Made by a program: the position numbers and the translations under genes
Assembly (NCBI GenBank): GCA_050952125.1
Contig: JBMNKK010000003.1
Coordinates: 7,952 to 71,951, forward strand
Length of the DNA: 64,000 nt
Source of the DNA: Bacillota bacterium
GTDB taxonomy: Bacteria > Bacillota > Sulfobacillia > Fermentithermobacillales > Fermentithermobacillaceae
Direction of reading: 5' to 3'
The notes under the pieces: model-generated
The model's database searches: none
Seen by the model: the letters and a program-made list of their open reading frames with translations, nothing else
What the model was told of the DNA's origin: nothing
Shown here: positions 427-17,592 of the stretch, piece after piece
How the letters are laid out: the number at the start of each line of letters is the position of its first letter
Numbering within the stretch: the first letter of the stretch is position 1

Positions 427-1629
427 TTACTTGTAGAACTCCTCCGGGTCGATCTCCGCCCTGGCAATGCCTGAATCTATAGCGGCCTTAGCGACCGCTT
501 TCGCGACGGCGGGGCCCACTCTTTTGTCGAAGGGGTCCACGATGATGTAGTCGGGCTTCAGTTCCGAGGGCGACACGAGTCCGGCGATGGCCTTTGCGGC
601 CGCCAGTTTCATCGCTTCGTTGATATCGCTCGCGCGCGCATCGAGAGCGCCCCGCAAGATGCCGGGGAAGGCTAGTACGTTGTTGACCTGGTTGGGATAG
701 TCCGAACGGCCGGTACCGACTACTCTGGCGCCTCCCGCGAGAGCATCCTCAGGGAAGATCTCGGGCACCGGGTTGGCCATGGCGATGACGATGGGATCCT
801 TACCCATCTTCTTGACCATCTCGGTAGTGATCGTGTTCGGGGCTGAGACTCCGATGAGGATATCCGCTCCCACCAGAGCATCCTCAATTGTGCCCTTGAG
901 GCTTCGCCTGTTTCCTCTCCTGGCGGTTTCTTCTTTGAAGGGGTTCATCCCGTCCGGCCTGCTGGCGTAGATAATCCCTCTGCTGTCGCAGACCAGGACC
1001 TCCTGGAATCCTACGTCGATGAGCAGATTGGCTGTTGCGATTCCTGCTGCGCCAGCCCCTGAGACCACTACTCTGGCCGACTCCGCGGTTTTGCCTACCA
1101 CCTTCAGCGCGTTCAAAAGCGCGGCGAGTACCACTACGGCGGTCCCGTGCTGATCGTCGTGGAATATGGGTATGGAGGTTTCCCTCTTGAGGCGCCGCTC
1201 GATCTCGAAACACTTGGGAGCTGCGATATCCTCCAGGTTCACTCCGCCCAACGTGGGTTCAATCCACTTTACGAACTGCACTATCTCGTCTACTTCCTTG
1301 GTCGCGATGCAGAGGGGGAAGGCGTCAACGTCCGCAAAGGCTTTGAAGAGGAGCGACTTACCCTCCATGACGGGTATCGCCCCGCCCGGACCGATATCTC
1401 CGAGCCCCAGCACGGCTGAGCCGTCTGACACCACGCCGATGAGGTTTCTCTTGAGCGTGTACTCATACGCTGCGTCAGGGTTCTTGGCTATCTCCATGCA
1501 GGCTTCCGCCACGCCGGGAGTGTAGGCCAACGAAAGGTCTTTTCTATCCCTGAGAGGCACTTTGCTCTTGACTTCGAGTTTTCCGTGGTTCTTACGGTGC
1601 AGTTCCAACGCTTCATCTCTAAGACTCAC
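427..1629 (-). CDS. NAD(P)-dependent malic enzyme (malate dehydrogenase, oxaloacetate-decarboxylating), about 400-aa two-domain type.
   Basis: Full-length match by eye to bacterial malic enzymes: AYTPGVA, VVSDGSAVLGLGDIGP and GAGAAGIA Rossmann motifs. Confidence 0.9.
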   Translation of the reverse strand: MSLRDEALELHRKNHGKLEVKSKVPLRDRKDLSLAYTPGVAEACMEIAKNPDAAYEYTLKRNLIGVVSDGSAVLGLGDIGPGGAIPVMEGKSLLFKAFADVDAFPLCIATKEVDEIVQFVKWIEPTLGGVNLEDIAAPKCFEIERRLKRETSIPIFHDDQHGTAVVVLAALLNALKVVGKTAESARVVVSGAGAAGIATANLLIDVGFQEVLVCDSRGIIYASRPDGMNPFKEETARRGNRRSLKGTIEDALVGADILIGVSAPNTITTEMVKKMGKDPIVIAMANPVPEIFPEDALAGGARVVGTGRSDYPNQVNNVLAFPGILRGALDARASDINEAMKLAAAKAIAGLVSPSELKPDYIIVDPFDKRVGPAVAKAVAKAAIDSGIARAEIDPEEFYK

Positions 1630-2222
1630 CGTGGATTCCCCCGTTCATAGATGTCGTTGCCTTTGACGTCGATCCCGACTATTGCCGGGAAGTTTTCGAT
1701 CTCCAGCCGGTATATCGCTTCCGGCCCGAGATCGGGGTAGGCGATGAGGTCGGCCTTCTTAACGGTTCCCGATAGGAGCGCTCCGGCGCCGCCGATCGTC
1801 ACGAAGTAAGGGGCGTTGTACTTGGCTATCGCCGACATGACTTCAGCGCTGCGGCGGCCCTTGCCAATGGCCCCGCCCAGTCCTGCCGCCATGAGTCGAG
1901 GTGCGTACGCGTCCATCCTAGTGCTTGTGGTGGGCCCCAATGACCCGATGACCTGCCCGGGAGCGGGCGGGCACGGGCCGGCATAGTAGATTACCTGGTT
2001 TTTCAGCTCAAGAGGCAGCGGGAGCCCCTTATCCAGCGCTTCAACGATCCTTCTGTGAGCCGCGTCTCTCGCTGTGTAGACCACGCCCGACAAGAGGACC
2101 CGGGTCCCCATCGGCAGCGTTCTTGCTGGGTCTGCTGCCCCATCAAAGGGTACGCGAACCGGGATAGCACCCTCCCAGAAAGAGTCTGTCTTAGCCACAG
2201 TCGGCCACCTCCTCGCCTTCAA
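1626..2222 (-). CDS. Class I fumarate hydratase / Fe-S hydro-lyase beta subunit (FumB/TtdB-like).
   Basis: Typical beta-subunit sequence of two-subunit class I fumarase/tartrate dehydratase. Overlaps the upstream alpha subunit by 32 nt and the downstream gene by 4 nt, consistent with operon coupling. Confidence 0.8.
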   Translation of the reverse strand: MKARRWPTVAKTDSFWEGAIPVRVPFDGAADPARTLPMGTRVLLSGVVYTARDAAHRRIVEALDKGLPLPLELKNQVIYYAGPCPPAPGQVIGSLGPTTSTRMDAYAPRLMAAGLGGAIGKGRRSAEVMSAIAKYNAPYFVTIGGAGALLSGTVKKADLIAYPDLGPEAIYRLEIENFPAIVGIDVKGNDIYERGNPR

Positions 2223-3063
2223 GGACTATAGAAGCCCGCCTCGCGGCGTGGCACTGCAAGTTGACGGCGCAAGGCAGCGCGCCAATGTGGGTGGGGTAGG
2301 TCTCGATGTGGACAGCGATGGCGGTCGTCGACCCGCCCAGTCCGGAGGGGCCGATCCCTAGTGCGTTCACTTCGCGTAGTAGGGTTTCTTCTAGTTCTGC
2401 GACTTTTGGATCGGGGTTAGGCGTTCCTACCGGCCGCAGCACTGCCTTCTTTGCGAGATACGCGGCGGTATCCATCATTCCGCCGACTCCTACCCCAACG
2501 ATCAAGGGCGGGCACGCGTTGGCGCCGCCCTTAGCCACGGCGTCTAGAACCATTCTCTTGACTCCTTCCACTCCTGCGGAAGGAGTGAGCATGTTCAGGA
2601 CGCTCATGTTTTCACTGCCGGTGCCTTTGGGGAACACGGTAATCGCCAGGTTCGACCCTGGAACGATCTCCACGTGGATTACCGGTGGAGTGTTGTCGCC
2701 AGTGTTCGACCTGTCGAACAGGGGGTCCTTGACGACTGATTTCCTAAGATAGCCTTCGACATAACCTTCCGCGACGCCCTTCGTGACGGCTTCACGAAGA
2801 TCGCCGCCCACAAGGTGCAGATCCTGGCCCAACTCTAGGAAGACATAGGTCACGCCTGTGTCTTGGCAGATCGGGATCTTCGTTTCCTTGGCGAGGTTGG
2901 CGTTCTTGACTATCGCCCCAAGGACTTCCTTGCCTAACGGGCTGTCCTCTGTCTCGCTTGCTTTCGCAAGAGCGGTCAAGACGTCGTCCGGGAGCCGGGT
3001 GCCGGCTTGGATACACAGATCCCTGACAGCTTTCCGGACTGAATCGACGCATAGAACCTTCAT
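2191..3063 (-). CDS. Class I fumarate hydratase / Fe-S hydro-lyase alpha subunit (FumA/TtdA-like).
   Basis: N-terminal catalytic-domain sequence of Fe-S hydro-lyases (CQDTG motif region). About 290 aa, paired with the adjacent beta subunit. Confidence 0.8.
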   Translation of the reverse strand: MKVLCVDSVRKAVRDLCIQAGTRLPDDVLTALAKASETEDSPLGKEVLGAIVKNANLAKETKIPICQDTGVTYVFLELGQDLHLVGGDLREAVTKGVAEGYVEGYLRKSVVKDPLFDRSNTGDNTPPVIHVEIVPGSNLAITVFPKGTGSENMSVLNMLTPSAGVEGVKRMVLDAVAKGGANACPPLIVGVGVGGMMDTAAYLAKKAVLRPVGTPNPDPKVAELEETLLREVNALGIGPSGLGGSTTAIAVHIETYPTHIGALPCAVNLQCHAARRASIVLEGEEVADCG

Positions 3064-3115
3064 ACAAGAGTCACCTGCTTCCTAGATATGTTTGGCGTGC
3101 GCGGCAACCGGCCGC

Positions 3116-4471
3116 TCACATTTCAAGCATCCGGAAGAGCAGTCCGGCATCTGAGGCATCCTCAATGCTAAAAGTCGCTTTGACGATGGCCTCGGTCTTC
3201 TCCGGACCCAGCCTGTTTCCTGCGAGATTCTGGAACTTGGCCACTAGATCCTCGCGAGCGAGCGGATTCTCCGGATCGCCCTTCCTAAAGAAGTTTTCCT
3301 GCGCGACAGACGTTCCGTTGTTCAGGAACACCTCAACTTTTGTCGGGCGGCACGAAGGGAAGCGCCGGTCATACTCCGGGTCTACAACGATCTCAACCTT
3401 GTTGGCCAGTTCACGGATTACCGGATTGGCGAGGGCCTCCGGTCCCAGGCTTTCGAAGTCGACCCTGCCTGAGACGAGTGCCGTCGCCAAGCAGAAGGGG
3501 GCGCTGAACATCGCTTCAAACGGCGTCGCGGGATTTGGATTCGCGATGAGTCCCAGCGCTTCCGTATAGGTGGAGAGCCTGATGGAGCGCACGTCTTCAG
3601 GAGATATCTTGTACTGTCCGGTGATCTTGAAAAGCGCGTCAATGGGTGAGTGGGTGTGCCCGCATGACGAGTGTACCTTGAAGTTGCTCTCCATGATCTT
3701 GTAGGACTCTCCCAAGCCTTTCGTTAGGGCGTCGATGTTCGGGCTTTTTGACGTGGCCGCGACGAAGCCCTTTTCTCCCTCGAATATGCGGTGCGGGCCT
3801 GTGAACCCTTTGTCCGCCAGGTAGGCCGCCAGCATTCCGTTTAAGGAGGCTTTAGCCGTATGCAGGACTTTGCTCATGGCTTTGTCGTCGAGGAACTGCC
3901 ACAGGCCTGAAGCCTGAGTCCCGGCCGTTCCCAGAGCGTCTGCTATCTTTTCGGCGTCAAGTCCCATGGCCCGTGCCGAAGCGGCCGCTGCCCCAAACGT
4001 GCCTGCCGTCGCTGTTGTGTGCCAAAAAGCGTAGTGTGACTTGCCCGTGGCTTCTCCCGTACGGAGAGCCACTTCGTAACCTGCAATGATGGACAGGAGC
4101 AACTCTCTGCCCGAAAGGTGCCTTTCTTGCGTCAACGCGGCGGCTGCAGGAATCGTGACTACGGCCCCGTGCATAATCGCTTTCTTATGGCCGTCGTCCA
4201 TCTCCGCCGCGTGGGAAAGGGCACCGTTGGCAAACCCGGCCCACAGAGGGGAAGATCCCCCTCTGTGGCCAACGACGGTCGACTCGCCTCCGGAATTCTG
4301 GCTGAGAGCGAAGTCAACCAGGATACCTGCTCCTTTGTTGTCTAGGCCCGCAACGGCGCAGCCGATCCAATCAAGCAGACACCACTTTGCCTTCTCAATG
4401 ACTTCGGCAGGCACTCTGTCGAAGTCAAGGTCGTGTATGAAAGCGGCCAGTTCTTCAGCTATTGGACGCAT
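3116..4471 (-). CDS. MmgE/PrpD family protein (2-methylcitrate dehydratase / cis-aconitate decarboxylase / iminodisuccinate-epimerase family).
   Basis: 451 aa with the family-typical N-terminal region (LDWIGCAVAG...), conserved HAAEMDD and SHYAFWH stretches. Confidence 0.8.
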   Translation of the reverse strand: MRPIAEELAAFIHDLDFDRVPAEVIEKAKWCLLDWIGCAVAGLDNKGAGILVDFALSQNSGGESTVVGHRGGSSPLWAGFANGALSHAAEMDDGHKKAIMHGAVVTIPAAAALTQERHLSGRELLLSIIAGYEVALRTGEATGKSHYAFWHTTATAGTFGAAAASARAMGLDAEKIADALGTAGTQASGLWQFLDDKAMSKVLHTAKASLNGMLAAYLADKGFTGPHRIFEGEKGFVAATSKSPNIDALTKGLGESYKIMESNFKVHSSCGHTHSPIDALFKITGQYKISPEDVRSIRLSTYTEALGLIANPNPATPFEAMFSAPFCLATALVSGRVDFESLGPEALANPVIRELANKVEIVVDPEYDRRFPSCRPTKVEVFLNNGTSVAQENFFRKGDPENPLAREDLVAKFQNLAGNRLGPEKTEAIVKATFSIEDASDAGLLFRMLEM

Positions 4472-5825
4472 TGGCCTTCTCCTCGCAAAGAGATGCCACT
4501 TTCAATGCCACTTCCTCGCACAATCCAAGGTAGTTTGCCGGATCCAGAGCCTTGTCGATTTCCTCAGCCGTCAGGAGCTCTTTGGTTCGCGGGTCGGCCA
4601 AGAGCGCATCCTTCAGGTAGATGTCGTTTTCGAATGCCTTCATAGACAGCTCGTAGACCAACTCGTGTGCGTGCTGCTTTCCAACTTTGTCGGCCAAAGT
4701 GAACATGACGCGTTCCGACAGGAGCAGGCCCTTTAGGATGTCGAGGTTCTTCCTCATCTTCTCGGGCTTCACTTTGAGATTGGCGACGAGATTCTTGCAG
4801 AATCGTACACAGCATCCGGCGTACTGGCAGGTTTCGGGGATGATCGCCCATTCTGTGCGCCACTGGGCGCCGTCGCGCTCATGCTCTTGCTCCATCACCT
4901 GGGTCATCACCGCGGCGTTTCCACGCACCATTTTGGCCATGCTCATAATGACCTCGCAGGTGCCCGGGTTCCGCTTGTGGGGCATTGTGCTGCTGCCCAC
5001 TTTGCCCTCGGTGAACGCCTCCTCGAGCTCGTCGACTTCTGTGGCCTGGAGGTTGAAGATCTCTTGCCCGATTCTGGCACAGGTAGAAGCGGTGAGGGCA
5101 AGTATGGACAGGAACTCAGCGAACCGGTCCCTTGCTGCATGCCAGCAGATAGCCGGTGTCCCAATCCCGAGCGAATCCATCACTTCTTTTTCTACGGCAC
5201 GTCCCAGGTCTCCAAACGAAGCGTAGGACCCAACCGCTCCGGTCATGTTTCCAACGAGGAGCCTGTCCTTGCTCTCTACTAGTCGATCGATGTTGCGCTG
5301 TACTTCATCTAGCCAAACGGCTGCCTTGAACCCGAAAGTAATTGGAAGAGCCTGTTGGCCATGGGTACGTCCGGCAACGGGCGTGTCCTTGTACTTGCGT
5401 ATTAGAGCGATAAGTTCCGTTCGCAGCCCTTCCAGATCTTTGAGGATAATCGCCCTCGCGTCCCTGAGCTGGAGAACCATCGCGGTGTCCCGGATGTCCT
5501 GGGTGGTGGCACCGTAGTGGATGTACTGGCCAAAGTCACCGTCGCAAGCCTTCTCGAGGGACCTTAGGAGAGGCACCAAACTGTGGCCGGTCTTCCTGAT
5601 CCCGGCCCGGACGTCCTCCATGTTGATATACTCGAACTTGGCCTTGCGGCAGATTTCCTCTGCGGCCTCATTTGGAATGATCCCCAGTTTGGCTTCTGCC
5701 TTGGCAAGAGCAGCCTCAACGTCTAGCAGCCTTTGAACGTTGGTTTTTTCATCCCATACTTCTCTCATGTCGTCCGTAGACACGACGTGCTGGAACAAGA
5801 ACGAGTCAATCATGTGCGAACCCAT
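4455..5825 (-). CDS. Fumarate-lyase (aspartase/fumarase class II) superfamily lyase, closest in appearance to adenylosuccinate lyase / 3-carboxy-cis,cis-muconate cycloisomerase.
   Basis: Signature GSSTMPHKRNP (GSSxMPxKxN). 456 aa. AGGAGG RBS (rc of 5833-5838) precedes the ATG at 5825. Confidence 0.8.
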   Translation of the reverse strand: MGSHMIDSFLFQHVVSTDDMREVWDEKTNVQRLLDVEAALAKAEAKLGIIPNEAAEEICRKAKFEYINMEDVRAGIRKTGHSLVPLLRSLEKACDGDFGQYIHYGATTQDIRDTAMVLQLRDARAIILKDLEGLRTELIALIRKYKDTPVAGRTHGQQALPITFGFKAAVWLDEVQRNIDRLVESKDRLLVGNMTGAVGSYASFGDLGRAVEKEVMDSLGIGTPAICWHAARDRFAEFLSILALTASTCARIGQEIFNLQATEVDELEEAFTEGKVGSSTMPHKRNPGTCEVIMSMAKMVRGNAAVMTQVMEQEHERDGAQWRTEWAIIPETCQYAGCCVRFCKNLVANLKVKPEKMRKNLDILKGLLLSERVMFTLADKVGKQHAHELVYELSMKAFENDIYLKDALLADPRTKELLTAEEIDKALDPANYLGLCEEVALKVASLCEEKANASNS

Positions 5826-5881: not shown

Positions 5882-5897
5882 AAGCAAACTTCATGCC
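5882..5897 (-). promoter_or_regulatory. Sigma-54 (-24/-12) promoter on the minus strand: TGGCAT-gaagt-TTGCT (rc of plus 5882-5897), about 57 nt upstream of the lyase ATG.
   Basis: Seen in sequence. Exact TGGCAY-N5-TTGCW spacing; an EBP gene lies immediately divergent. Confidence 0.55.
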
Positions 5898-6184
5898 ATT
5901 GGGCGCGTGTCCCATTTCTGAAACTCGCACCTTCCCGCACAGAGACCGTTGCTGTATGATGAAAGGTGTCGAATCAGCGCAGGTACGGCTGGAAGAACGG
6001 ATGGTGACCCCAAATTAAAGCGGAATCGGACAGGCTATGGGCCAGGCAGGCGCTTGAACTCGCATCAAAAGCCCTGCACAGAGATATTGGAGTTCTGGAC
6101 CCATCTTTTGATCTCATTTTTGGGACAGGCGCCTTTTCGCCCGACTCCGATACTTCGAAATGGCGTCGTGAGTGCCGGGAAGCA

Positions 6185-7726
6185 GTGAAGAGACATGCGG
6201 GAAAGGCGCGCTTTTCGTCTGAGATCTCGTTTGGTTCGGGCGGGAAGGTGGCGGTTGACCTCCTGGTTCAGCCCGGAGGCTCCATCGTGGTACTGGGGCC
6301 CGCTCCAGATGACGAACAGCACTCGAACGGCAACATGGCGACTATTCTGAGTCTGCTTGGAGAGGCCATCCTCAGACTCAGCACTGAAAATGAGCGCATC
6401 TCCTCCTTTGACGGTCCGGCGGTGATTCTGGAGAAGTCGCTGGACGAGATAGGGGCGGGGTTCATCTTCATAGACCAGGCGGGTCAAGTTCTGGCGAGGA
6501 GCCAGTGGCTTTCCAGCGCCATGCCCGAAGGCAAGACTCTGTACGATATGTTGGATCCAAAGAGCTTGTCGAAACTAGATTTCACTCGCATTTCACGCGC
6601 GACGATTCCCATCTCTCTCAATGGGAACCCGCAGCTCTGCGACGTATCTCTGCTCCCGTTTTCGCTTGCCGGCTCCAGGATCAAGTGGGTCGCGCTCATT
6701 AGGAGGCACGGAGTCCCTGCATCCGCACAGCCGGCCAGCACCGCAGCGACCGGCGCAGATGAGCCGGCACTGGTTGGCAGTTCCCAGGTGGCCCAACGGA
6801 TGAAAACTGAGCTCACCAAGGCGGCCTCAATCGACAGCACAGTATTGCTAACCGGGGAAACGGGGACGGGGAAGAGCCTTGCGGCTCGTTGGATCCACGC
6901 CCGGGGTGCCCGCCGAACAGGACCGTTTGTGGCTGTAAACTGCAGCGCACTCCCTCCGTCACTTATCGAGAGCGAGCTTTTCGGCTACGAAGAGGGGGCC
7001 TTCACGGGTGCAAAGCGAGGCGGGAAACCCGGCAAATTCGAGCTCGCCAACAAAGGGACCATCCTGCTCGATGAAGTAGGCGATCTCCCTTTGGAGATGC
7101 AAGGCAAGCTCTTGCAGGTTCTCGACCTGGGTGAGATCGATAGGATAGGCGGGCGCGAGCCCAAGAAGGTAAATGCCCGGGTTATTGCCGCCACCAACAA
7201 AGACCTATCCGCACAGGTAAAGGCCGGCGCTTTTCGAGCCGACCTCTTCTTCCGCCTTGGCGTCATCTCAATAGAGATACCGGCTCTGCGCGACCGGCTC
7301 GAAGACCTGCCCGACTTGGTGGCGCATTTCATCGAACACCTTGGACAAAAGACGGGAAGAACGGCCCTTAGCATATCGGATGAAGCCCTTGCCCTTCTCC
7401 AGGGATATTCTTGGCCCGGCAACATAAGGGAACTGGCCAATGCGGTGGAGTACGCAATGGTGTTCTGCGAATCTGACACAATAGAGCCTGAACACTTACC
7501 GCTCAGAGTGTCTGCTAACAATGCAATTGAGACAAGGCCCGTCTACAGCCTGGAAGAAGCCGAGCGCAGGGAGATCGCCAAATGTGTCGCCAGCTTTGGC
7601 CTTTCCGAGGAAGGTAAACGCAAGATAGCGGAGGCTCTAGGCGTATCCAGGAGCACAGTCTACAGGAAGCTCAATAAGTACGGGTTTACCGCTGCCCCCA
7701 AGGCGAGTAGGCGGTCTCATAATTGA
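6185..7726 (+). CDS. Sigma-54-dependent transcriptional activator (bacterial enhancer-binding protein): N-terminal sensory region of unknown type, central AAA+ domain, C-terminal Fis-type HTH.
   Basis: Walker A GETGTGKS, GAFTGA motif (EGAFTGA), ESELFG, and a C-terminal HTH (VSRSTVYRKL). The true start may be downstream (e.g. Met at about 6335), because the first 50 aa are atypical. Confidence 0.9.
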   Translation: MKRHAGKARFSSEISFGSGGKVAVDLLVQPGGSIVVLGPAPDDEQHSNGNMATILSLLGEAILRLSTENERISSFDGPAVILEKSLDEIGAGFIFIDQAGQVLARSQWLSSAMPEGKTLYDMLDPKSLSKLDFTRISRATIPISLNGNPQLCDVSLLPFSLAGSRIKWVALIRRHGVPASAQPASTAATGADEPALVGSSQVAQRMKTELTKAASIDSTVLLTGETGTGKSLAARWIHARGARRTGPFVAVNCSALPPSLIESELFGYEEGAFTGAKRGGKPGKFELANKGTILLDEVGDLPLEMQGKLLQVLDLGEIDRIGGREPKKVNARVIAATNKDLSAQVKAGAFRADLFFRLGVISIEIPALRDRLEDLPDLVAHFIEHLGQKTGRTALSISDEALALLQGYSWPGNIRELANAVEYAMVFCESDTIEPEHLPLRVSANNAIETRPVYSLEEAERREIAKCVASFGLSEEGKRKIAEALGVSRSTVYRKLNKYGFTAAPKASRRSHN

Positions 7727-7783
7727 TATCTCATGTCTCAAGCGTGAGACATGCAGACCACAACTCACTCATATTCTCCCGTC

Positions 7784-7804
7784 TCGTAGAACGCGTATCT
7801 ACGA
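7784..7804. promoter_or_regulatory. Inverted repeat TCGTAGA-N7-TCTACGA about 100 nt upstream of the plus-strand sigma-54 promoter; candidate enhancer (UAS) for the EBP.
   Basis: Perfect 7-bp arms seen in sequence. Placement is typical for EBP binding sites. Confidence 0.3.
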
Positions 7805-7887
7805 AACATGCATCGTTCGGCTCCTGATCCTATGTATTAGGCTCGCCAACGCTCCTCTCCAAATTTCCTATCCTCACGATTTCATCT

Positions 7888-7903
7888 CGGCACGCTTCTT
7901 GCT
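7888..7903 (+). promoter_or_regulatory. Sigma-54 (-24/-12) promoter cGGCACG-cttc-TTGCT upstream of the UxaA-type operon.
   Basis: Matches TGGCACG-N4-TTGCW in all positions except the first T. Followed by a GGGAGG RBS (7921-7926) and a GTG start at 7936. Confidence 0.6.
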
Positions 7904-7935: not shown

Positions 7936-8235
7936 GTGGCACATGCCATCGCGCTCAGCGAGAAGGACAACACGGCAACCGCTTTGAGCGATCTTCAAGC
8001 GGGCCTCAGGCCGGTCATTAATGGACCTACTCGATTCCAAGGGATCGAACTGAAAGATGAAATACCGTTTGGCCACAAGTTTGCTTTGGTACCCATCGGC
8101 CTCGGCGAGGAGGTCGTGAAGTACGGCGAGGTCATCGGTATAGCCAGCAAGAGTATCGATGCCGGCGAGTACGTTCACGTTCACAACGTTGTGAGCCGGC
8201 GGGGAAGAGGCGACTTGGAGGTCTCTGAAGCATGA
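7936..8235 (+). CDS. UxaA/GarD-family dehydratase N-terminal SAF-domain small subunit (about 100 aa). The ORF track calls it from 7906, but a GTG at 7936 with an RBS is more likely the start.
   Basis: VVKYGEVIGIASKSIDAGEYVHVHNV matches the SAF/altronate-dehydratase N-terminal motif (…G…IG.A…I..GE.VH.HN). Its stop overlaps the start of the large subunit (ATGA). Confidence 0.7.
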   Translation: MAHAIALSEKDNTATALSDLQAGLRPVINGPTRFQGIELKDEIPFGHKFALVPIGLGEEVVKYGEVIGIASKSIDAGEYVHVHNVVSRRGRGDLEVSEA

Positions 8236-9404
8236 TCCTGAGTGATAGATTCCTGGGGTACAAGAGAGAGAATGGCTCGATAGGGGTACGCAATTACGTA
8301 GGCGTCCTGGCATGCTCGGCGTGCGCTGTTCCTGCTGCAAGGCGCATATCCGAAGCGGTGAACGGCACGGCGTTGTTTACCCACAATCAGGGTTGCTGCG
8401 CGGCCGACGCCGACCTCGAAGCGACGAGGCGCACTCTGGTGTCACTTGCGCTCAATCCCAACCTCCATTCCGTCCTCTTCGTAGCCCTGGGTTGTGAGGG
8501 CCTGCCTGTTGAGCAGATCGTGGAAGAGACCTGCCTTGCCGGAAAGCATGCTGAACTAATAAGTGTAGAGAACTGCGGCGGCACGTCGCTCGCGGTTGCG
8601 CAGGGGACCTTCAGAGCCGAAGAGATGGTTGTCGAGGCATCACGTGCTGAGCGGTGCGAAGCAAGCCTCAGCGACCTGACTATCGGCATCAAATGCGGTG
8701 ACTCCGACGCGATCTCCGGTTTGGGCGCAAACCGCGTGGTGGGCCATGTAGTCGACTCTCTGGTTGCCAAGGGGTGCACTTGTCTTGTCACCGAGGTCAC
8801 AGAGCTCATCGGCGCTGAACACGTCCTGGCGCGCCGCGCAGTGGACGCTATCGTGTCGAGAAAGATCGTAGATGCTGTCGAGACTATGGAGCGGCGTCTC
8901 GCTGCCCACGGTGTCCATCCTCGGAGCGCGGGCGTATCGATCGCGGATGTGTCGGGCGGCCTTACCACAATCGAGGAGAAGTCGTTGGGCGCTCTGACAA
9001 AGACCGGCACCTGCCCTGTCTCAGGCGTGTATCCGTACGGCGAAAGAGTCACGGGTAAAGGACTCATGCTGATTGACGGACCCGGCCGTGAGCCTGAGGC
9101 TCTTACTGCGCTGGCAGCCGGCGGAGCCCACGTGATCCTTTTCACAACAGGTCATGGATCCCCTCAAGGGTTCCCGTTCGTCCCCGTCCTCAAGATCACG
9201 GGCAATCTGCGGAGCTACAAACGAGCCAAGAGCCACATAGATGTCTCGGTATGTGATGTCCTGGACGCCTGGCCCAACGTGGACGAAGCTGCGGCAGGCA
9301 TCGAGAGGGAAGTTATCGCGGTATCTTCCGGCAAGAGAACCCGCGCCGAAGTCACCGGATACTACGAATGCACTGACATATACACGACGGGACTCGTATT
9401 CTGA
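8232..9404 (+). CDS. UxaA family hydrolase, large (C-terminal-domain) subunit, paralogue 1.
   Basis: Characteristic FLGYKRENGSIGVRN start and a Cys-rich metal site (GCCAAD, GCEG). 390 aa. Confidence 0.8.
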   Translation: MILSDRFLGYKRENGSIGVRNYVGVLACSACAVPAARRISEAVNGTALFTHNQGCCAADADLEATRRTLVSLALNPNLHSVLFVALGCEGLPVEQIVEETCLAGKHAELISVENCGGTSLAVAQGTFRAEEMVVEASRAERCEASLSDLTIGIKCGDSDAISGLGANRVVGHVVDSLVAKGCTCLVTEVTELIGAEHVLARRAVDAIVSRKIVDAVETMERRLAAHGVHPRSAGVSIADVSGGLTTIEEKSLGALTKTGTCPVSGVYPYGERVTGKGLMLIDGPGREPEALTALAAGGAHVILFTTGHGSPQGFPFVPVLKITGNLRSYKRAKSHIDVSVCDVLDAWPNVDEAAAGIEREVIAVSSGKRTRAEVTGYYECTDIYTTGLVF

Positions 9405-9430
9405 GCAGTTTCGGAATCGGCAGTCGGACA

Positions 9431-10615
9431 ATGGGGGAAGAGGAATTGGCGGCCACACGGTTTTTAGGATATGCAAGACCAGACGGGTCGATAGGTGTCA
9501 GGAACTCGACCGCAGTCATGTCCGCGGTTATGTGTGCCAACGAGGTAACCGAGGACATTGCCAAAGGTATTGATGGAGCCATCGCTGTTGTCCACGGCCA
9601 TGGATGTTGCCAGCTGCCTCCCGACCTGGCACTTGTCCAGCGGACGCTCATAAACATCGGCAAGAACCCCAACATCGCCAACGTCATTTTGGTGTCTTTG
9701 GGCTGCGAGGGCGTAGACCCGGACGCCGTCGCCCAAGAACTCACCGCCGCTGGCAAGGCTGTGGAGGTGATTAGGATCCAGGAGGAAGGCGGCACTCTTC
9801 CTGCCACCGAGAGAGGGCGCCGCGTCTGCGAGAAGTGGAGGTCTCTGGCATCTAAAGTAGAGCGTGCCAGCTTTGACGCCACCGAACTCACGATAGGTAT
9901 CAAGTGTGGTTCGTCAGATACCACCTCAGGCCTAATCTGCAATCCATCCGTCGGCAGGCTGACGGACCGGTTCGTCGCCGAAGGCGGGACAGTGATCTTC
10001 GGCGAAACCACTGAGTTTATCGGAGCCGAGCACCTTTTGGCGCAGCGGGGATGCACGCCCGAAGTGAAGGCTGCGATACCAAAGATCGTCGCCGAGATGG
10101 AAGAGCGTTGCCTCACCATGAAGGTGGACATGCGTACAGGGCAGCCCACTCCGGGAAACATCAGGGGTGGCCTCACCACGATTGAGGAGAAGTCGCTGGG
10201 CGCGATATCGAAGTCGGGAACCGGCAAGATAAAAGGCGTCCTCGAGTACGGCGAACGCCCACAGTCTAAAGGCCTATTCATCATGGACAGCCCGGGAAGG
10301 GAACCTGAACTGCTCACCGGACTTGCGGCATCGGGCTGCTCCATAGTGCTCTTCACAACGGGGCGGGGTGCTCTGCAGGGTCATCCCGTCGTTCCTGTGA
10401 TCAAGATCACGGGCAACGAGCGCACCGCCCAACACCTCGCCAGTCACATGGATGTGGATGTCAGCGCGGCCCTGACAAGACACGCATCCCTGGACGAAAT
10501 GGCTGATCTCATATGGAGCAAGATCGTGGATGTTGCTTCGGGTACCCTCACCAAGGCCGAGATTCACGGTTGCGGACGATTCATGAACATCTATGTGAAA
10601 GGTCCCATTATCTAA
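9431..10615 (+). CDS. UxaA family hydrolase, large subunit, paralogue 2 (tandem duplicate of the previous gene).
   Basis: FLGYARPDGSIGVRN start, and GCEG, GIKCGSSD and TTIEEKSLGA blocks co-linear with paralogue 1. 394 aa. Confidence 0.8.
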   Translation: MGEEELAATRFLGYARPDGSIGVRNSTAVMSAVMCANEVTEDIAKGIDGAIAVVHGHGCCQLPPDLALVQRTLINIGKNPNIANVILVSLGCEGVDPDAVAQELTAAGKAVEVIRIQEEGGTLPATERGRRVCEKWRSLASKVERASFDATELTIGIKCGSSDTTSGLICNPSVGRLTDRFVAEGGTVIFGETTEFIGAEHLLAQRGCTPEVKAAIPKIVAEMEERCLTMKVDMRTGQPTPGNIRGGLTTIEEKSLGAISKSGTGKIKGVLEYGERPQSKGLFIMDSPGREPELLTGLAASGCSIVLFTTGRGALQGHPVVPVIKITGNERTAQHLASHMDVDVSAALTRHASLDEMADLIWSKIVDVASGTLTKAEIHGCGRFMNIYVKGPII

Positions 10616-10653
10616 AGGATCCGGAGAAACCACAATCAGGAGGATGAAAAGCA

Positions 10654-11622
10654 GTGTCTAGGAGATTGACTCTCAGAGTCGTAGCATGTTTCGTTCTACT
10701 TGCAGGCATCCTGCTCTCCGCATGTACTCCCAAAGAATCCGAGGCACCGGCGTACCCGTCAAAGGGTCTCGAATTCGTAGTACCCTTCGCCGCAGGCGGA
10801 GCAGTTGACCTGACCAGCCGTATACTCTGCACCGAAGTTGAGAAGACGCTCGGCCAGAAGTTCACCATTGCCAACAAACCCACAGGTGGAGCTGTGGAAG
10901 GCCTAAGCTACGTTGCCCGCGCCGCGGCCGACGGCTATACGCTCGGTGCCGCGACTTCGTCACTGGTCACCAACATCCTTACCAAGGACGTCGACTTCAC
11001 TCTCGATTCCTACGATCCTATCGCCATGTACTCTTTTGACCCCATGGTGTTTGTCGTCAACGCGGATTCTCCGTGGGAGAGTCTCGATGAAGTGGTTGAG
11101 GCCTCCAAGACCCAGTCGCTGGCTGCTTCCACTCCCGGCCTTGCCAACTCAAAGCACATCGCAGGTATGCTCTTCGAGCAGGAATCCGGAGCGAAATTCA
11201 CCTACGTGCATACCGGCGGAGCCAGTGAAGGCGTTCCCATGCTGGCCGGCGGGCACGTCCAGGTCGGTTGCTGGTCTTGGGGCGAGGTAAAAGCGATGGT
11301 AGACGCCGGCAAACTCCGGGTACTCGGTGTCATGTCAGAAGAGCGCGACGAGAGAATACCCGATGTCCCGACCTTCAAAGAGCAGGGATATGACCTGGTC
11401 TACGGCGCATGGCGTGGAATCGCGGCCCCCAAGGGACTGCCCGACGATGTCAAGGCGACGCTGACCAAAGCGTTTGGAGACGCTATCCAGAATCCTGACG
11501 TTGTGAAGCAGTTGAAGGATGCCGGCTTCCCGGTCCTTTACAAGGACGCTGAGGGCTTCTGGGATTTTGTCAAGGCTGACTACGACTACGTAAAGGCGAT
11601 CCTCGAGACGCTGGAGGACTAG
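10654..11622 (+). CDS. tctC: Tripartite tricarboxylate transporter substrate-binding lipoprotein TctC (Bug family).
   Basis: Signal peptide plus LLSAC lipobox. TctC-family sequence throughout (PGGAVD..., ...GTPGLANSKHIAG). Confidence 0.8.
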   Translation: MSRRLTLRVVACFVLLAGILLSACTPKESEAPAYPSKGLEFVVPFAAGGAVDLTSRILCTEVEKTLGQKFTIANKPTGGAVEGLSYVARAAADGYTLGAATSSLVTNILTKDVDFTLDSYDPIAMYSFDPMVFVVNADSPWESLDEVVEASKTQSLAASTPGLANSKHIAGMLFEQESGAKFTYVHTGGASEGVPMLAGGHVQVGCWSWGEVKAMVDAGKLRVLGVMSEERDERIPDVPTFKEQGYDLVYGAWRGIAAPKGLPDDVKATLTKAFGDAIQNPDVVKQLKDAGFPVLYKDAEGFWDFVKADYDYVKAILETLED

Positions 11623-11647
11623 GCAAGCCTAGTAGATAGCAAAGGAG

Positions 11648-12904
11648 ATGACGGGTGTGGCTCTACCGCGGCTCTTTCCTATACGGCAGAGGTTTGTCAA
11701 CAGGGCGCTGCCTGATGTGTCTAAGGCGACAGAAGAGGCTTTCCTGCGATCCCACGTGCTCGATGCACTCTTGCCCGGACAGTCGGTAGCGGTATGCGTG
11801 GGGAGCAGGGGAATCTCAAATCTAGCTGAGATAGTGAAGAAGACCGTCGACCTGGTCCGTGCCAGAGGAGCCACCCCCTTCATCGTACCCGCCATGGGCA
11901 GCCATGGCGGGGGCAACGCAGAAGGGCAGACGCATCTCCTCGATCACTACGGGATTTCCGAGGCGAGCATGGGATGCGCTGTAAAGGCCGATATGTCAAC
12001 CACAGAGGTCGGACGCAGTCCCGAAGGCATAAGAGCGTACGTATCTAACGAGGCTCTTAAGGCGGATCACATTATCGCAGTTAACCGAGTAAAACCGCAT
12101 ACCGAGTTCGAAGGCGCGATTGAGAGCGGCATTCTGAAGATGCTCTGCATTGGCCTGGGTAAGTTGGACGGTGCCCAGCATTACCACAGCATCGGGATGA
12201 GGCTTGGCTTCGAGCACACGTTGCGTACCGGAGGCAGGTTGGTGCTGGACAATGCACCGGTCCTGTGCGGGCTAGCTATTGTTGAGGACTCATACGATCA
12301 GACCGCCATCATCGAGGCGCTCCGTCCTGATGGCCTGGAAGCAAGAGAAGAAGAGTTGTTGAAACTAGCGAAAAGTTGGGTTCCTAAGCTGCCCTTTGAC
12401 GAGGCTGATGTCCTTATCGTGAACCAGATGGGCAAGGACGTCTCGGGGACCGGAATGGACACCAAGACCGTTGGGCGTATCATGAGCGTCTACGCGAAGG
12501 AGCCAAAGTCGCCCCGCATCACCAGAATAGCTGTTCTAGACGCAAGTGAAGGGAACGATGGAAACCTTCTCGGGATAGGGCTTGCGGATTTCACGACGGA
12601 AAGGCTCGTCTCCAAGATGGATCCCGCGAAGGTGCACCTGAATGCCACAGCGGCACTCACCCCGGAAAAGGCCCGCGTGCCAATGTGGTTTTCATCTGAT
12701 ATTGAGCTGTTCAAGACGTGTTTTGCCACGATAGCGCCTCTTGATCCTCTCGACCAGAAGGTGATGCGGATCCAGGATACCCGCCACCTTGAGGTAGTCT
12801 GGGTATCCGAAGCTTACCTTCCTGAGGTTAAGGGCAGACCGGATCTAGAGATAGCGGGTCCGGCCGAAGAAATGCGTTTTGACAATAACGGTCGTCTTAT
12901 CTGA
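11648..12904 (+). CDS. LarA-like / DUF2088 (lactate-racemase N-terminal-like) domain protein, inserted between tctC and tctB.
   Basis: About 420 aa with a layout reminiscent of LarA (AMGSHGG in place of the ATGTHR block, GLGKLDG...HYH). It lacks the D-x-T-R-P block of true LarA, so the functional call is tentative. Confidence 0.45.
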   Translation: MTGVALPRLFPIRQRFVNRALPDVSKATEEAFLRSHVLDALLPGQSVAVCVGSRGISNLAEIVKKTVDLVRARGATPFIVPAMGSHGGGNAEGQTHLLDHYGISEASMGCAVKADMSTTEVGRSPEGIRAYVSNEALKADHIIAVNRVKPHTEFEGAIESGILKMLCIGLGKLDGAQHYHSIGMRLGFEHTLRTGGRLVLDNAPVLCGLAIVEDSYDQTAIIEALRPDGLEAREEELLKLAKSWVPKLPFDEADVLIVNQMGKDVSGTGMDTKTVGRIMSVYAKEPKSPRITRIAVLDASEGNDGNLLGIGLADFTTERLVSKMDPAKVHLNATAALTPEKARVPMWFSSDIELFKTCFATIAPLDPLDQKVMRIQDTRHLEVVWVSEAYLPEVKGRPDLEIAGPAEEMRFDNNGRLI

Positions 12905-12907
12905 AAG

Positions 12908-13381
12908 GTGTTGATGAACGCGATGAAGATCACCCAGCTGGTGACAGGATTGGTCCTGCTCGCGCTGGTCGGGGTCATGTTCTTCACCACGACCAACATG
13001 AAGTACATGATCGGCGGAACACCGGGGCCAAGGTTCATGCCGTTGGTGCTCTCCGTTGCCTTATCGATACTCATCGTCATCTACTGGATTGAAGCCTATG
13101 CGGCCAGAAACGAAGAGCAGAAGTCGCCGTGGGACGTAAAGGCGCTCCCTAAGCCGCTGACCTTCCTCGCGATATGCATTGGACTGGTCATCCTTTGGAA
13201 CCCGTTGGGAGCTCTGCCCTCGGTGTTTCTGGCGGCTGTCGCGGAACTTAAGCTTCTGGAAAAGTGGACGTGGAAGCGCGCCCTCATGGTGTCGTTCATC
13301 ATGACCGTTTTCACCTGGGCGCTTTTTGGCAAGGCTCTCGCGATCCAGTTCCCCGCCGGCATATTGCGCGGGATCATATAG
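12908..13381 (+). CDS. tctB: Tripartite tricarboxylate transporter small membrane subunit TctB.
   Basis: 157-aa, 4-TM hydrophobic protein located between TctC and TctA. Confidence 0.65.
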   Translation: MLMNAMKITQLVTGLVLLALVGVMFFTTTNMKYMIGGTPGPRFMPLVLSVALSILIVIYWIEAYAARNEEQKSPWDVKALPKPLTFLAICIGLVILWNPLGALPSVFLAAVAELKLLEKWTWKRALMVSFIMTVFTWALFGKALAIQFPAGILRGII

Positions 13382-13396
13382 AGAGGATGAGGTGAA

Positions 13397-14899
13397 GTGG
13401 ACGTCTTAAGTCTACTGCTAAAGGGCTTCAGTGTCGCCTTAACCCCGCAGAACCTGCTTCTTTGCGCCGGCGGAGTTATCATGGGCACTCTCGTGGGAGC
13501 CCTTCCCGGAATCGGACCCACCGGCGCTGTGGCAATGCTGCTCCCGGCGACGTTCAAGATGCACCCAGCAGGCGCCCTGATCATGCTTGCCGGTATCTAC
13601 TACGGGACTCAGTACGGTGGAACGATCACATCGGTTCTGATGGGCGTGCCTGGAGAATCTGCGTCAGTCGTAACCGCGATGGACGGTTATCAGATGGCCA
13701 AGAAAGGGCGCGCGGGAGCCGCGCTGGGAATAGCCGCCATCGGTTCGTTTGTTGGCGGAACCCTAAGCGTATTGGGGCTAATGCTCGTCGGCCCCAAGCT
13801 CGCTTCGTTTGCCCTCATGTTCGGCCCTACCCAGTACTTTGCCTTAATGATGATGGCGTTCTCACTCGTCACGGCCTTCACGGGTAAGTCCACAACGAGA
13901 GGACTAATCTCGCTGGCCGTCGGAATCTTCCTATCGTTGGTGGGCCAGGATGTGATGACCGGGGCCGAGCGGTTCACCTTCGGACAGGTCGCGCTGATCG
14001 ATGGAATCAAGTTCCTTCCCGTCGGCGTCGGCATGTTCGGCTTGGCAGAGATACTTGAGGGGTTCGAGGAAGAGGAATCCTCTGACATGATTGAGGCCGA
14101 CCTGCACTGGAGGAAAGTGCTTCCCAGTAAGGCTGAGATGAAAGAGTGCGCGGGGCCGATTGCTCGCGGCACGCTCATAGGCTTCCTCTCGGGACTTCTC
14201 CCCGGTGTTGGAGCGACTATCTGCTCGTTCCTGTCGTACGGAGTTGAGCAGAGGATCTCGAAGAAACCGGAGGAGTTCGGAAAGGGTTCCCCGGCTGGGG
14301 TTGCGGCTCCTGAGACCGCCAACAACGCGTGCACCGGAGCGGCTTTTGTCCCGATGTTGAGCTTGGGTATTCCTGCGGGTGCGACTTCGGCCGTCCTTCT
14401 GGGAGCTCTCATCATGTTTGGCCTGCAGCCCGGGCCGCTTCTGTTCCAGCAGTCGCCTGACGTGGTCTGGGGCCTTATTGCCAGTATGTACATTGGCAAC
14501 GTGATGCTCGCTGTGATCAACGTGGCTTGTATCCCTGCTTTTGTGTGGATAATGGATAAGATCAAGAGTTACCTGTCCATCGTCGTACTGCTGCTGGCGA
14601 CGTTCGGCGTATACAGCTATCAGAACTCTATCGCCGACGTGTTCATAATGATCGTATTCGCGGTTGTCGGGTACCTGATGGGCAAGGTTGGAATCCCGAA
14701 GGCGCCTCTGGTCTTGGGCCTGCTGTTGGGCGGCATGGCTGAGTCAAGCCTCAGGCAAGCGCTTACGATCTCCCACGGTAGCCTTTCAATCTTCTTCGAG
14801 AGCCCCATAACCATGACTTTCCTCGCTCTCGCAGTCCTATCTTTGGGGGCGGGCCGGCTCACAAGGGGCGGAGGCAAGAAGAAGAAGGCCGAAGCGTAG
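13397..14899 (+). CDS. tctA: Tripartite tricarboxylate transporter permease TctA.
   Basis: 500 aa and polytopic; the duplicated TctA-family motif GVLPGIGPT / GLLPGVGAT is present. Confidence 0.9.
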   Translation: MDVLSLLLKGFSVALTPQNLLLCAGGVIMGTLVGALPGIGPTGAVAMLLPATFKMHPAGALIMLAGIYYGTQYGGTITSVLMGVPGESASVVTAMDGYQMAKKGRAGAALGIAAIGSFVGGTLSVLGLMLVGPKLASFALMFGPTQYFALMMMAFSLVTAFTGKSTTRGLISLAVGIFLSLVGQDVMTGAERFTFGQVALIDGIKFLPVGVGMFGLAEILEGFEEEESSDMIEADLHWRKVLPSKAEMKECAGPIARGTLIGFLSGLLPGVGATICSFLSYGVEQRISKKPEEFGKGSPAGVAAPETANNACTGAAFVPMLSLGIPAGATSAVLLGALIMFGLQPGPLLFQQSPDVVWGLIASMYIGNVMLAVINVACIPAFVWIMDKIKSYLSIVVLLLATFGVYSYQNSIADVFIMIVFAVVGYLMGKVGIPKAPLVLGLLLGGMAESSLRQALTISHGSLSIFFESPITMTFLALAVLSLGAGRLTRGGGKKKKAEA

Positions 14900-14911
14900 G
14901 GAGACTTGATG

Positions 14912-14936
14912 CGGAGCAGGGATATCCCTGCTCCGT
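14912..14936 (+). terminator. Possible weak terminator hairpin after tctA (CGGAGCAGG-gatat-CCTGCTCCG).
   Basis: 9-10 bp stem seen in sequence. The U-tract is poor, so this may be only an attenuating hairpin. Confidence 0.3.
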
Positions 14937-14973
14937 CAAAATCTGTAGGACTTTTCGTTCTGGGGGGCCACAC

Positions 14974-16239
14974 TTGCCAGTCAAAGCAATAGCCGCAACA
15001 ACATTTCTTGTTGCCTACGTACTCCTAATCCAGCACAAGGTGCGGCCACCTCTGGTGGTATGGAGCGGAGCAGCTCTGCTTCTTGCCCTCGGAGTGGTCA
15101 CGCCTCTCTCGGCTTTACAGAGCATCAACCTTAACGTCATTGGAATTGTCCTTGGAACCATGGTCCTTTCGGACCTGTTCATCCACTCCGGAGTCCCGGC
15201 GTATCTCGCGTCGGTGATGGTAACCCGGTCGGCCTCGGTCGGACAAGCCCTCCTGGCGGTGTGTATCCTGTCAGGCGTTGTTTCGGCTGCAGTTGACAAC
15301 GTGGCAACCGTGCTCATGATCGCTCCCATTGCTCTGGAGGTATCGCGTCAGCTCTGTGTTTCGCCCGTTCAGTTCCTTATAGGGATATCCGTATCGGCCA
15401 ACCTTCAGGGCGCAGGAACCATGATCGGGGACTCAACCTCCATACTGCTCGCCTCTGAAGCAGATATGACCTTCATGGACTTCTTCTGGATGGACGGCCG
15501 TCCAGGCATATTCTTCTCAGTCCAGCTGGCCGCTGTGGCAGCCTTTGTAGTTCTTCACCTGTTCTTCAGGAAGCATAAGGGGGCGTGCAGCCCGGTCCCA
15601 TGCCCGAGCGTCTCATCTTGGGTGCCTACTGTGCTCATGGTGGCCACGATGGTAACGATGGCGCTGTCGAGCTTCATTCCCGGGAGGCCCGACTGGACCG
15701 TGGGCGGCATCGCTATAGCCTATGGATTGGCGGGCCTTATCTGGAACTCGGCCGCGAAATACAAGGAAGGGAACCTGCTCAAGGACGTCGATTGGGAGAC
15801 AATCTTGCTGCTGGGCGGCCTGTTCGTCCTGATCGGGAGCCTCACGACCACCGGCCTTATCGACGACATCGCGAATCTCATCTCAACCTGGACCAGCGGC
15901 AAGGCTTTTCTAGCCTACAACATCATCGTGTGGATGTCGGTACTGCTCTCGGCGTTCGTGGACAATATCCCGTACACCATGGCTATGCTTCCTGTTGCCA
16001 AGATTCTGTCGGTAAGCATAGGGGCGTCTCCCAATCTGATGATGTTCGGACTCCTGCTCGGAACAACCCTAGGAGGGAACATCACACCCATCGGCGCGTC
16101 GGCCAACGTGGTCGCTGTATCTCTCCTTCGCAAGAACGGGCACGAGGTGTCATTCCCTGATTTCGCCCGCATTGGCTTGCCCTTTACTATCGCGGCAGTT
16201 GTGACCGGGTCTTTGCTCAACTGGGTTCTGTGGAGTTAA
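14974..16239 (+). CDS. ArsB/NhaD-superfamily (CitMHS-type) anion permease.
   Basis: 421 aa, about 12 TM, with duplicated family motifs (AAVDNVAT...; AFVDNIPYTMAM). Confidence 0.75.
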   Translation: MPVKAIAATTFLVAYVLLIQHKVRPPLVVWSGAALLLALGVVTPLSALQSINLNVIGIVLGTMVLSDLFIHSGVPAYLASVMVTRSASVGQALLAVCILSGVVSAAVDNVATVLMIAPIALEVSRQLCVSPVQFLIGISVSANLQGAGTMIGDSTSILLASEADMTFMDFFWMDGRPGIFFSVQLAAVAAFVVLHLFFRKHKGACSPVPCPSVSSWVPTVLMVATMVTMALSSFIPGRPDWTVGGIAIAYGLAGLIWNSAAKYKEGNLLKDVDWETILLLGGLFVLIGSLTTTGLIDDIANLISTWTSGKAFLAYNIIVWMSVLLSAFVDNIPYTMAMLPVAKILSVSIGASPNLMMFGLLLGTTLGGNITPIGASANVVAVSLLRKNGHEVSFPDFARIGLPFTIAAVVTGSLLNWVLWS

Positions 16240-17522: not shown

Positions 17523-17577
17523 CGTGATCGTAGCAACTACGGGCAGAAACGTATAATAGCGGGTTGTGATTGAACTG

Positions 17578-17592
17578 ATAAGATTCTGTTAT
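17578..17592. promoter_or_regulatory. LysR-type T-N11-A box with dyad symmetry (ATAAGA-ttc-TGTTAT) in the divergent larA/lysR intergenic region.
   Basis: Seen in sequence. The position between the divergent genes is classic for LTTR autoregulation/activation sites. Confidence 0.4.

Follow-up and report, generated by a model that had tools for sequence, protein, structure and literature searches.

We analysed a 64,000-nucleotide stretch of DNA from a Bacillota bacterium (contig JBMNKK010000003.1, positions 7,952 to 71,951; hereafter the window), in which a gene encoding a sigma-54 enhancer-binding protein (EBP) lies at 6185..7726 on the plus strand. Two outward-facing −24/−12 motifs flank this gene, each of them placed in front of a multi-gene operon for the uptake or catabolism of organic acids. 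Judged from its sequence, the locus is a standard catabolic switch built on sigma-54 and an EBP, like those catalogued in Clostridiales, and we consider it likely that it forms a sigma-54-dependent catabolic regulon in which one locally encoded EBP runs both operons. For this uncultured Bacillota lineage, the result is a clean, testable regulon model made of two promoters, three candidate activator sites and thirteen target genes. General knowledge of sigma-54 control is left unchanged by the locus.

Two outward-facing promoters beside a single activator gene

The annotated EBP (513 residues) comprises a partial GAF-like domain, a linker helix, a PAS domain, an AAA+ domain with a GAFTGA motif and a helix-turn-helix (HTH) of the Fis type. 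Residues 196-364 match the Pfam profile Sigma54_activat (PF00158, E=1.5e-63); AAA_lid_14 was also matched, and the C-terminal residues 478-500 match HTH_50 and HTH_8, both of the Fis type. An exact GAFTGA motif is encoded at 6995, and the Walker A and B residues (GxxGxGK, DE) are invariant across the family alignment. With its Walker-bearing AAA+ domain, its GAFTGA loop and its C-terminal HTH, the predicted protein has the features of a bacterial enhancer-binding protein, as had been proposed in an earlier reading of the window (the sequence-only reading). The protein and NCBI MGI6631868.1, which comes from a Bacillota metagenome-assembled genome, are 100% identical. Beyond its own 90% cluster, the next match, which is also the best full-length homolog, is 43% identical. 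The protein is not PrdR: against the corresponding NCBIfam equivalog (NF041552) it scores 350 bits, the cut-off being 795, and the match is confined to profile positions 268-577, in the AAA+-HTH part. No other EBP gene was found in the 64-kb window or in a further 3.8 kb on contig L001, which carries the same locus.

In Clostridiales, EBP genes usually adjoin their targets and the promoter consensus TTGGCAT-N5-TTGCT precedes the start codon by 40-130 nt (Nie et al. 2019, PMC6615313). The left promoter of the window matches this consensus. It reads TGGCATGAAGTTTGCT on the minus strand at 5883..5898, with the GG doublet at 5897/5896 and the GC doublet at 5885/5884, and was identified by both weight matrix and consensus. 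The motif is 57 nt from the ATG of the lyase gene (5825), which is preceded by AGGAGG; the left transcript would start near 5872, with a 5′ untranslated region of about 47 nt. The right promoter, CGGCACGCTTCTTGCT, is located on the plus strand at 7888..7903 (GG 7889/7890, GC 7901/7902) and was identified by weight matrix and by conservation in a diverged ortholog described below. Here, the motif is 33 nt from the GTG of the SAF gene (7937), the start used by gene callers, and GGGGAGGTG precedes that GTG. The right transcript would start near 7914, with a 5′ untranslated region of about 23 nt including the Shine-Dalgarno sequence. At both promoters the GG and GC doublets are exactly 10 nt apart, and no more than one of the 12 positions specified in TGGCAC-N5-TTGCW is mismatched. 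Both sites are 49-74 nt from the start codons, within the published range. Neither intergenic region yielded a sigma-70-type promoter.

To score these motifs, we used a weight matrix derived from 54 Clostridiales sigma-54 sites (Table S3 of Nie et al. 2019, PMC6615313). The matrix uses informative positions only, and the window's own base composition served as background. The training sites, which are mostly predicted and come from AT-rich clostridia, have a median score of 21.7 and a minimum of 14.37 bits. With 21.33 bits, the left promoter ranks first of the ~128,000 positions in the window, and shuffled windows give 0.015 sites as good. The right promoter ranks second, with 14.01 bits, and 0.56 sites as good are obtained in shuffled windows. 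Its low score is entirely due to a C where T is expected (CGGCAC in place of TGGCAC). A search for TGGCACG-N4-TTGCW with at most one mismatch gave three matches in the window for 0.55 expected, two of them being the promoters reported here. The third, at 26254 on the minus strand, is antisense inside a gene and scores 7.6 bits; it was treated as a chance match.

The sequence-only reading had placed one −24/−12 motif on each side of the EBP gene, at the same distances from the lyase ATG and the SAF GTG, and these two motifs indeed have the top two matrix scores. It had also called both of them near-consensus. This is overstated for the right promoter, which falls narrowly below the lowest training score and is marginal by sequence alone, while the left promoter, well above that score, is strong as far as its sequence goes. 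Since both motifs are found in the correct 5′ regions and orientations, beside the only EBP gene in 64 kb, a chance origin of the pair is very unlikely.

Conservation of the right promoter was then considered. The locus is nearly base-for-base identical on at least 13 independent metagenome contigs (L001-L010 and L022-L024, members of the 90% cluster). The regulatory DNA of these near-identical strains is uninformative for conservation, and L022 is a 1.9x-coverage assembly in which the few differences are probably errors. A single diverged ortholog was found, on contig L012, by searching with UxaA-L1, the first large dehydratase subunit (81% identity). In the same order as in the window, L012 carries the EBP gene (63% identical, cut at the contig end) and the genes for the SAF subunit, both large subunits and TctC. 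The EBP-SAF intergenic DNA of L012 has diverged to near-random identity, save for the island TGGCACAGATCTTGCT. This island occupies the position orthologous to the right promoter and carries the perfect consensus TGGCAC-N5-TTGCT, with the T; its score of 17.24 bits is above the training minimum. Conservation of this element amid diverged DNA therefore argues that the site is under selection, and the C found in the window is, by this comparison, a weakening variant of a conserved promoter.

No orthologous locus was found by alignment of the lyase or of UxaA-L1 against GTDB species genomes, and UxaA-L1 gave only relatives of 42-47% identity against JGI metagenomes. P0002, the closest full-length EBP homolog, was rejected as an ortholog on account of its unrelated gene context. 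As to the SAF gene of L012, the start chosen by the gene caller is the TTG of the −12 promoter element (1669; region 1658-1725). The position aligned to the SAF GTG of the window is an ATC (1705) following a good GGAGGTG, and either this ATC or the TTG at 1723 is a candidate start.

Dyads upstream of both promoters and alternative models

Clostridiales EBPs have multiple palindromic upstream activator sequences (UAS) located 100-250 bp upstream of the promoter, and some of these EBPs (CrbR, DioR) drive two or more operons (PMC6615313). In the window, a perfect palindrome with 9-bp arms, CATGTCTCA-AGCG-TGAGACATG, is found at 7732-7753. At its core is TCTCA-N4-TGAGA, which is similar to the sites of DioR and CdsR2 type in the tables of Nie et al., where the UAS of both regulators contain TCTCA...TGAGA-type half-sites (Table S3, PMC6615313). 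We also considered the palindrome as an intrinsic terminator and rejected this reading, since no U tract follows, the terminator scan made no call here and L012 has no hairpin.

When up to one mismatch is allowed, TCTCA-N4-TGAGA occurs at exactly three sites in the 64 kb, all of them upstream of the two promoters. None of these symmetric sites was assigned a strand. Candidate UAS-R1 (TCTCATAATTGATA, 7715..7728) overlaps the stop codon of the EBP gene and has a counterpart at the orthologous position of L012, TCTCAAGACTGACA (1488-1501); a weaker copy is found there 21 bp away, with the same spacing as the pair of the window. Candidate UAS-R2 (TCTCAAGCGTGAGA, 7736..7749) corresponds to the palindrome core. 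It starts 21 bp after UAS-R1 and is centred ~147 nt upstream of the right −24 GG. The candidate left UAS (TCTCATTTTTGGGA, 6112..6125) carries one mismatch and is centred ~222 nt upstream of the left −24 GG. With the degenerate motif T[AC]TCA-N4-TGA[GT]A, two exact matches were counted in the window for 0.17 expected.

Related dyads accompany distant members of the EBP family. In Neomoorella glycerini (L011; CP046244.1, 11744-11912), the 150 nt that separate the EBP stop codon from a sigma-54 site of 20.8 bits are filled by three TATCA-N3-TGATA dyads, for 0.26 expected; the site stands ahead of a serine-dehydratase-alpha-like gene. On contig L018, three exact T[AC]TCA-N3-TGA[GT]A dyads, for 0.04 expected, are located between the stop codon of a 570-aa EBP and a site of 15.9 bits. 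Both EBPs have a Cys-rich GAF domain followed by a PAS domain, and both loci display the layout observed here, EBP gene, dyads and sigma-54 promoter, with related half-sites. A half-site family T[AC]TCA/TGA[GT]A is thereby defined for a widespread, so far unnamed group of GAF-PAS EBPs.

By their symmetry, their presence in multiple copies 100-250 bp upstream, their restriction to the locus and their conservation, the TCTCA-N4-TGAGA dyads look like UAS. We therefore describe them as candidate UAS, well supported for the right-hand pair and with weaker evidence for the left-hand copy. A fourth, weaker dyad-like sequence (TCCCATTTCTGAAA, 5910-5923, two mismatches) precedes the left −24 by only ~20 nt, a shorter distance than a classical UAS would have. 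The left region showed no shared 8-mer and no perfect palindrome. The commonest clostridial UAS type, TGT-N10-12-ACA, was searched for as well and set aside; it occurs only within the 7732-7753 palindrome, is absent near the left promoter and is not clearly present in L012. Rfam gave no RNA element in the region studied here.

Overall, the locus shares EBP-target adjacency, promoter consensus and UAS placement with the Clostridiales regulons of DioR, CdsR2, CrbR and PrdR (PMC6615313). It differs from them in that its EBP is an ortholog of no named group and in the N4 spacing of its dyads.

In the model that we favor, EBP dimers would bind the TCTCA-N4-TGAGA dyads, two of which straddle the EBP stop codon 150-175 bp upstream of the right promoter, the weaker one being ~220 bp upstream of the left promoter. 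When a signal occupies the sensor module, the AAA+ ring would assemble and contact the sigma-54 holoenzyme in the closed complex at 5898→5883 and at 7888-7903, ATP being used for opening. With the right transcript, the cell would gain uptake (TctCBA, CitMHS), a split dehydratase or lyase of the UxaA/SuyAB type, whose large subunit exists as two paralogs, and a LarA-like 2-hydroxyacid isomerase. The left transcript would add a lyase of the fumarase superfamily, a PrpD/IRG1-like enzyme, fumarase and malic enzyme, on a route that would end in pyruvate. Both operons would depend on sigma-54 in vivo and would be induced together. Co-regulation by a single EBP, as put forward in the sequence-only reading, is the most economical reading because this EBP is the only one in 64 kb and because the same dyad precedes both promoters and is otherwise absent from the window. 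In particular, the fact that the only other copy of the dyad lies upstream of the left promoter supports the action of one activator at both promoters. Two enzyme sets would be linked in this way by one regulator, and the PAS/GAF sensor could be used as a handle for the inducing compound.

Other arrangements were weighed against this model. The sequence-only reading had the EBP bind a different element, the inverted repeat TCGTAGA-N7-TCTACGA at 7784-7804. This repeat is present and perfect, and its position ~95 nt upstream of the right promoter would be acceptable for a UAS. However, from the arm and spacer limits, 7-bp inverted repeats are expected by chance at ~0.17-0.25 per 160-240 nt region, that is, ~0.2 here, and the 7732-7753 palindrome is statistically rarer. 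Moreover, the repeat is absent from L012 despite a nearly unchanged EBP recognition helix, no copy of it nor anything related is found upstream of the left promoter, and it is unlike the dyads that accompany other family members. The repeat is thus a feature of the sequence without support as UAS, and we regard binding of the EBP to it as highly improbable. Another arrangement would involve two activators, the local EBP driving only the co-directional right operon and a distant EBP driving the left one. In L011 and L018, the family EBP and its target do follow each other on the same strand, and the left promoter of the window has a single, imperfect dyad. On the other hand, neither the 64 kb nor the additional 3.8 kb of L001 contains a second EBP gene, and EBP genes usually adjoin their targets (PMC6615313). 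Furthermore, the sole additional dyad with at most one mismatch falls ~222 nt upstream of the left promoter, for which the chance is ~0.01-0.02 given ~2.3 sites per 64 kb. We consider two separate activators quite unlikely.

A last alternative is that only the left operon is sigma-54-dependent, the right CGGCAC element being decayed or non-functional and transcription of the SAF-UxaA-Tct operon coming from the EBP gene by read-through or from a sigma-70 promoter that escaped detection. The position of the right site just under the training minimum, owing to the C at a conserved T, would agree with this, as would the ~0.56 equal-scoring sites expected per shuffled window and the lack of an intrinsic terminator between the EBP gene and the right operon. 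Nevertheless, the right site remains the second best of ~128,000 positions, correctly oriented 33 nt before the SAF start, and L012 has the full consensus (17.2 bits) at this place in diverged surroundings. Paired dyads are also present at the distance expected for UAS, and relatives have the same succession of EBP gene, dyads and promoter. Sigma-54 dependence of the left operon only is therefore unlikely in our view. Several observations nonetheless weigh against a regulon of two operons under the local EBP. No RpoN box was found within the 64-kb window. The right promoter scores 0.36 bits under the weakest training site, and the position of its C is occupied by T in all but one of the 54 training sites and by C in none. 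No ortholog covering the left promoter was found, L012 being cut and the other strains being identical. The left promoter has one dyad only, which is imperfect and located inside a possible 5′ coding extension of the EBP gene. Finally, the dyad spacing is N4 here and N3 in the two distant relatives L011 and L018, and the motif was recognized post hoc from one of its own copies.

Sensor module and start of the activator gene

The sequence-only reading had described the N-terminal sensor of the EBP as uncharacterised. Indeed, the N-terminal 195 residues of the annotated protein gave no homolog by word search and no Pfam match at E<=10. Relatives of the sensor were found by family alignment. Reading upstream from the annotated GTG (6185), the EBP frame meets no stop for 59 codons, until a TGA at 6005-6007. 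The in-frame, stop-free extension (6014..6184, plus strand, 171 nt) corresponds to the first helix and strands of the GAF-like domain of the family. It aligns with the start of relatives of 570-600 aa, which have GAF (SpoVT_C-like) and PAS domains, and it includes an invariant G-T-G motif (G37/T38/G39). No ATG, GTG or TTG codon is present anywhere in the extension. In the alignment, an ATT at 6014 falls exactly where several homologs have their Met, and GGTGA (6003-6007) precedes this ATT at a 6-nt spacing. The coding signal of the extension is weak, with a GC content at third codon positions of 0.49 as compared to ~0.66 in genes, and a codon log-likelihood of −0.03 as compared to +0.19.

The annotated open reading frame at 6185-7726 is thus present as had been proposed, with a start that is probably too far downstream, in view of the open frame aligning with the N-terminus of homologs. 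The annotated start probably truncates the EBP gene or its ancestral form, and we flag this as an annotation problem. Either the extension is translated from an AUU start, giving a protein of 570 aa, or it is a recent relic with translation from 6185; the two possibilities are about equally likely. Among 10 independent contigs, the sole polymorphism in both regulatory regions is an A/G at position 6159, which would correspond to Lys/Arg if the extension were translated.

An AlphaFold model of the 250-residue N-terminus, extension included, was examined. The mean predicted local distance difference test score (pLDDT) was 65.9, with residues 1-40 at 68-78. The predicted fold consists of a small alpha/beta GAF-like domain (residues 1-96), a 40-residue helix and a PAS domain (residues 148-231, pLDDT 75-81). 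Using Foldseek, the top structural match by TM-score was the GAF-PAS sensor of DhaR, the other matches being tandem PAS sensors. As with the N-terminal sensor of E. coli DhaR (PDB 4lrx), a GAF-like domain and a PAS domain are joined by a helix (TM 0.52, E=1e-5); sequence identity is only 12%, and the EBP model is of modest confidence. DhaR works with sigma-70 and senses the partner proteins DhaK and DhaL, not a small ligand. On the basis of family alignment and structure prediction, we classify the sensor of the EBP as a PAS domain preceded by a degenerate GAF-like domain.

The closest architecture is that of a group of Bacillota EBPs of the GAF(Cys-rich)-PAS-AAA+-HTH type, comprising Neomoorella glycerini P0002, P0005, P0023, P0058 and the EBP of L018. 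The EBP of the window shares with them the overall architecture, the length (570-600 aa) and the invariant N-terminal GTG motif. In contrast, its GAF-like domain is ~20 residues shorter, the entire cysteine cluster (CxxC...C...CC) is gone, and a canonical start codon is absent at the start position of the family.

Proposed target operons and surrounding genes

The two operons were described using Pfam and NCBIfam. The left operon (427..5825, minus strand) contains five genes, encoding a Lyase_1 protein similar to adenylosuccinate lyase (4455-5825), an MmgE/PrpD-like protein (3116-4471), the alpha (2191-3063) and beta (1626-2222) subunits of a class I fumarate hydratase, and a malic enzyme (427-1629). 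These genes are overlapping or tightly spaced, and their order is identical on 10 independent contigs. The best NCBIfam matches of the lyase are XcbD and adenylosuccinate lyase, both below cut-off; its nearest solved structures are the fumarate lyase 3c8t, the trans-aconitate decarboxylase Tad1 and CMLE. The PrpD-like protein is far under the PrpD equivalog cut-offs of NCBIfam, and its nearest solved structures are IRG1/CAD (cis-aconitate decarboxylase) and IDS epimerase. A fumarate-releasing lyase followed by fumarase and malic enzyme would make a coherent route to pyruvate.

The right operon (7937..16239, plus strand) contains eight genes. They encode a SAF small subunit (7937-8235, PF08666), two UxaA/GarD-type large subunits (8232-9404 and 9431/9515-10615), TctC (10654-11622), a LarA-like/DUF362 protein (11648-12904), TctB (12908-13381), TctA (13397-14899) and a CitMHS transporter (14974-16239). 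The two large subunits (8232-10615) are 44% identical to each other and follow a single SAF small subunit, as is also the case in L012. The SAF and large subunits belong to the SuyAB/UxaA-GarD family (PF08666, PF04295, PF20629). With 185-218 bits for a cut-off of 731, the large subunits fall short of the GarD equivalog. Their homologs at ~50% identity are mostly found in sulfite- or sulfate-reducing taxa, and some carry the pipeline name 'sulfolactate sulfo-lyase subunit beta'. Carboxylic-acid catabolism, the label given to both operons in the sequence-only reading, is a fair one: both are multi-gene, both deal with organic-acid uptake or catabolism, and the promoters are correctly placed in front of them.

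In Enterobacteria, propionate catabolism is controlled by PrpR, a sigma-54 EBP encoded divergently from the prpBCDE operon, which is a carboxylic-acid operon with an enzyme of the MmgE/PrpD family. The window shows the same divergent layout of an EBP gene and an operon with a PrpD-family enzyme, and the AAA+-HTH region of the EBP has similarity to the PrpR model of NCBIfam. It differs in that the sensor of the EBP is not PrpR_N and in that the PrpD-like protein is closer to IRG1/CAD and IDS epimerase. A term search of the regulons described in PMC6615313 did not return targets of the UxaA-type dehydratase, Tct transporter or Lyase_1/PrpD-like kinds, and a literature search on this gene combination gave nothing directly relevant.

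One may ask whether the two operons together constitute an undescribed anaerobic pathway for an unusual organic acid, with an aconitate-type tricarboxylate or a sulfonated C3/C4 acid (for example sulfolactate) as candidates. Its switch would be an EBP with a GAF domain that lacks the cysteine cluster of the family, and with either a rare AUU start or a truncated frame. The idea comes from the enzyme set, namely a split lyase of the SuyAB kind that has two paralogous large subunits, a LarA-like racemase of the nickel-pincer type, a Tad1/XcbD-like lyase of the fumarase superfamily and a PrpD protein similar to IRG1 and IDS epimerase. We give it a small but real probability. On L018 (JGI Ga0334890_1000001, 9628-15589), the gene for the 570-aa member of the EBP family closely follows a SAF-UxaA pair and is itself followed by its own dyads and sigma-54 site, and on contig L016 an EBP gene is found near a UxaA homolog. 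These two cases hint at a recurrent association of this EBP family with UxaA-type genes.

Further genes were noted outside the two operons. A second, full-length LarA gene (lactate-racemase family) converges on the right operon; after it come a LysR regulator and, in tandem, two aconitase-family genes of 660 and 642 aa (16236-22541 for the whole group). With sigma-70-like hexamers at 17581-17553, this group is apparently a further organic-acid module outside the sigma-54 regulon. An [FeFe]-hydrogenase-like protein with 4Fe-4S domains is encoded at 32771-34312; it has 513 aa, like the annotated EBP, by coincidence, and is unrelated to the switch described here. Together with the housekeeping or sporulation-type genes thrS, pheST, mutS2 and ytxC, such a gene content fits an anaerobic spore-former. 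A molybdenum/tungsten cofactor (Moco) riboswitch (28843-28962, 64 bits, E=5e-13) is found upstream of an operon for a periplasmic-binding-protein/FecCD/ABC transporter (29148-31994) and of a DUF4213/DUF364 gene. Finally, an L20 leader (RF00558, 61 bits) is located at 42349-42477, after thrS and presumably ahead of infC-rpmI-rplT.

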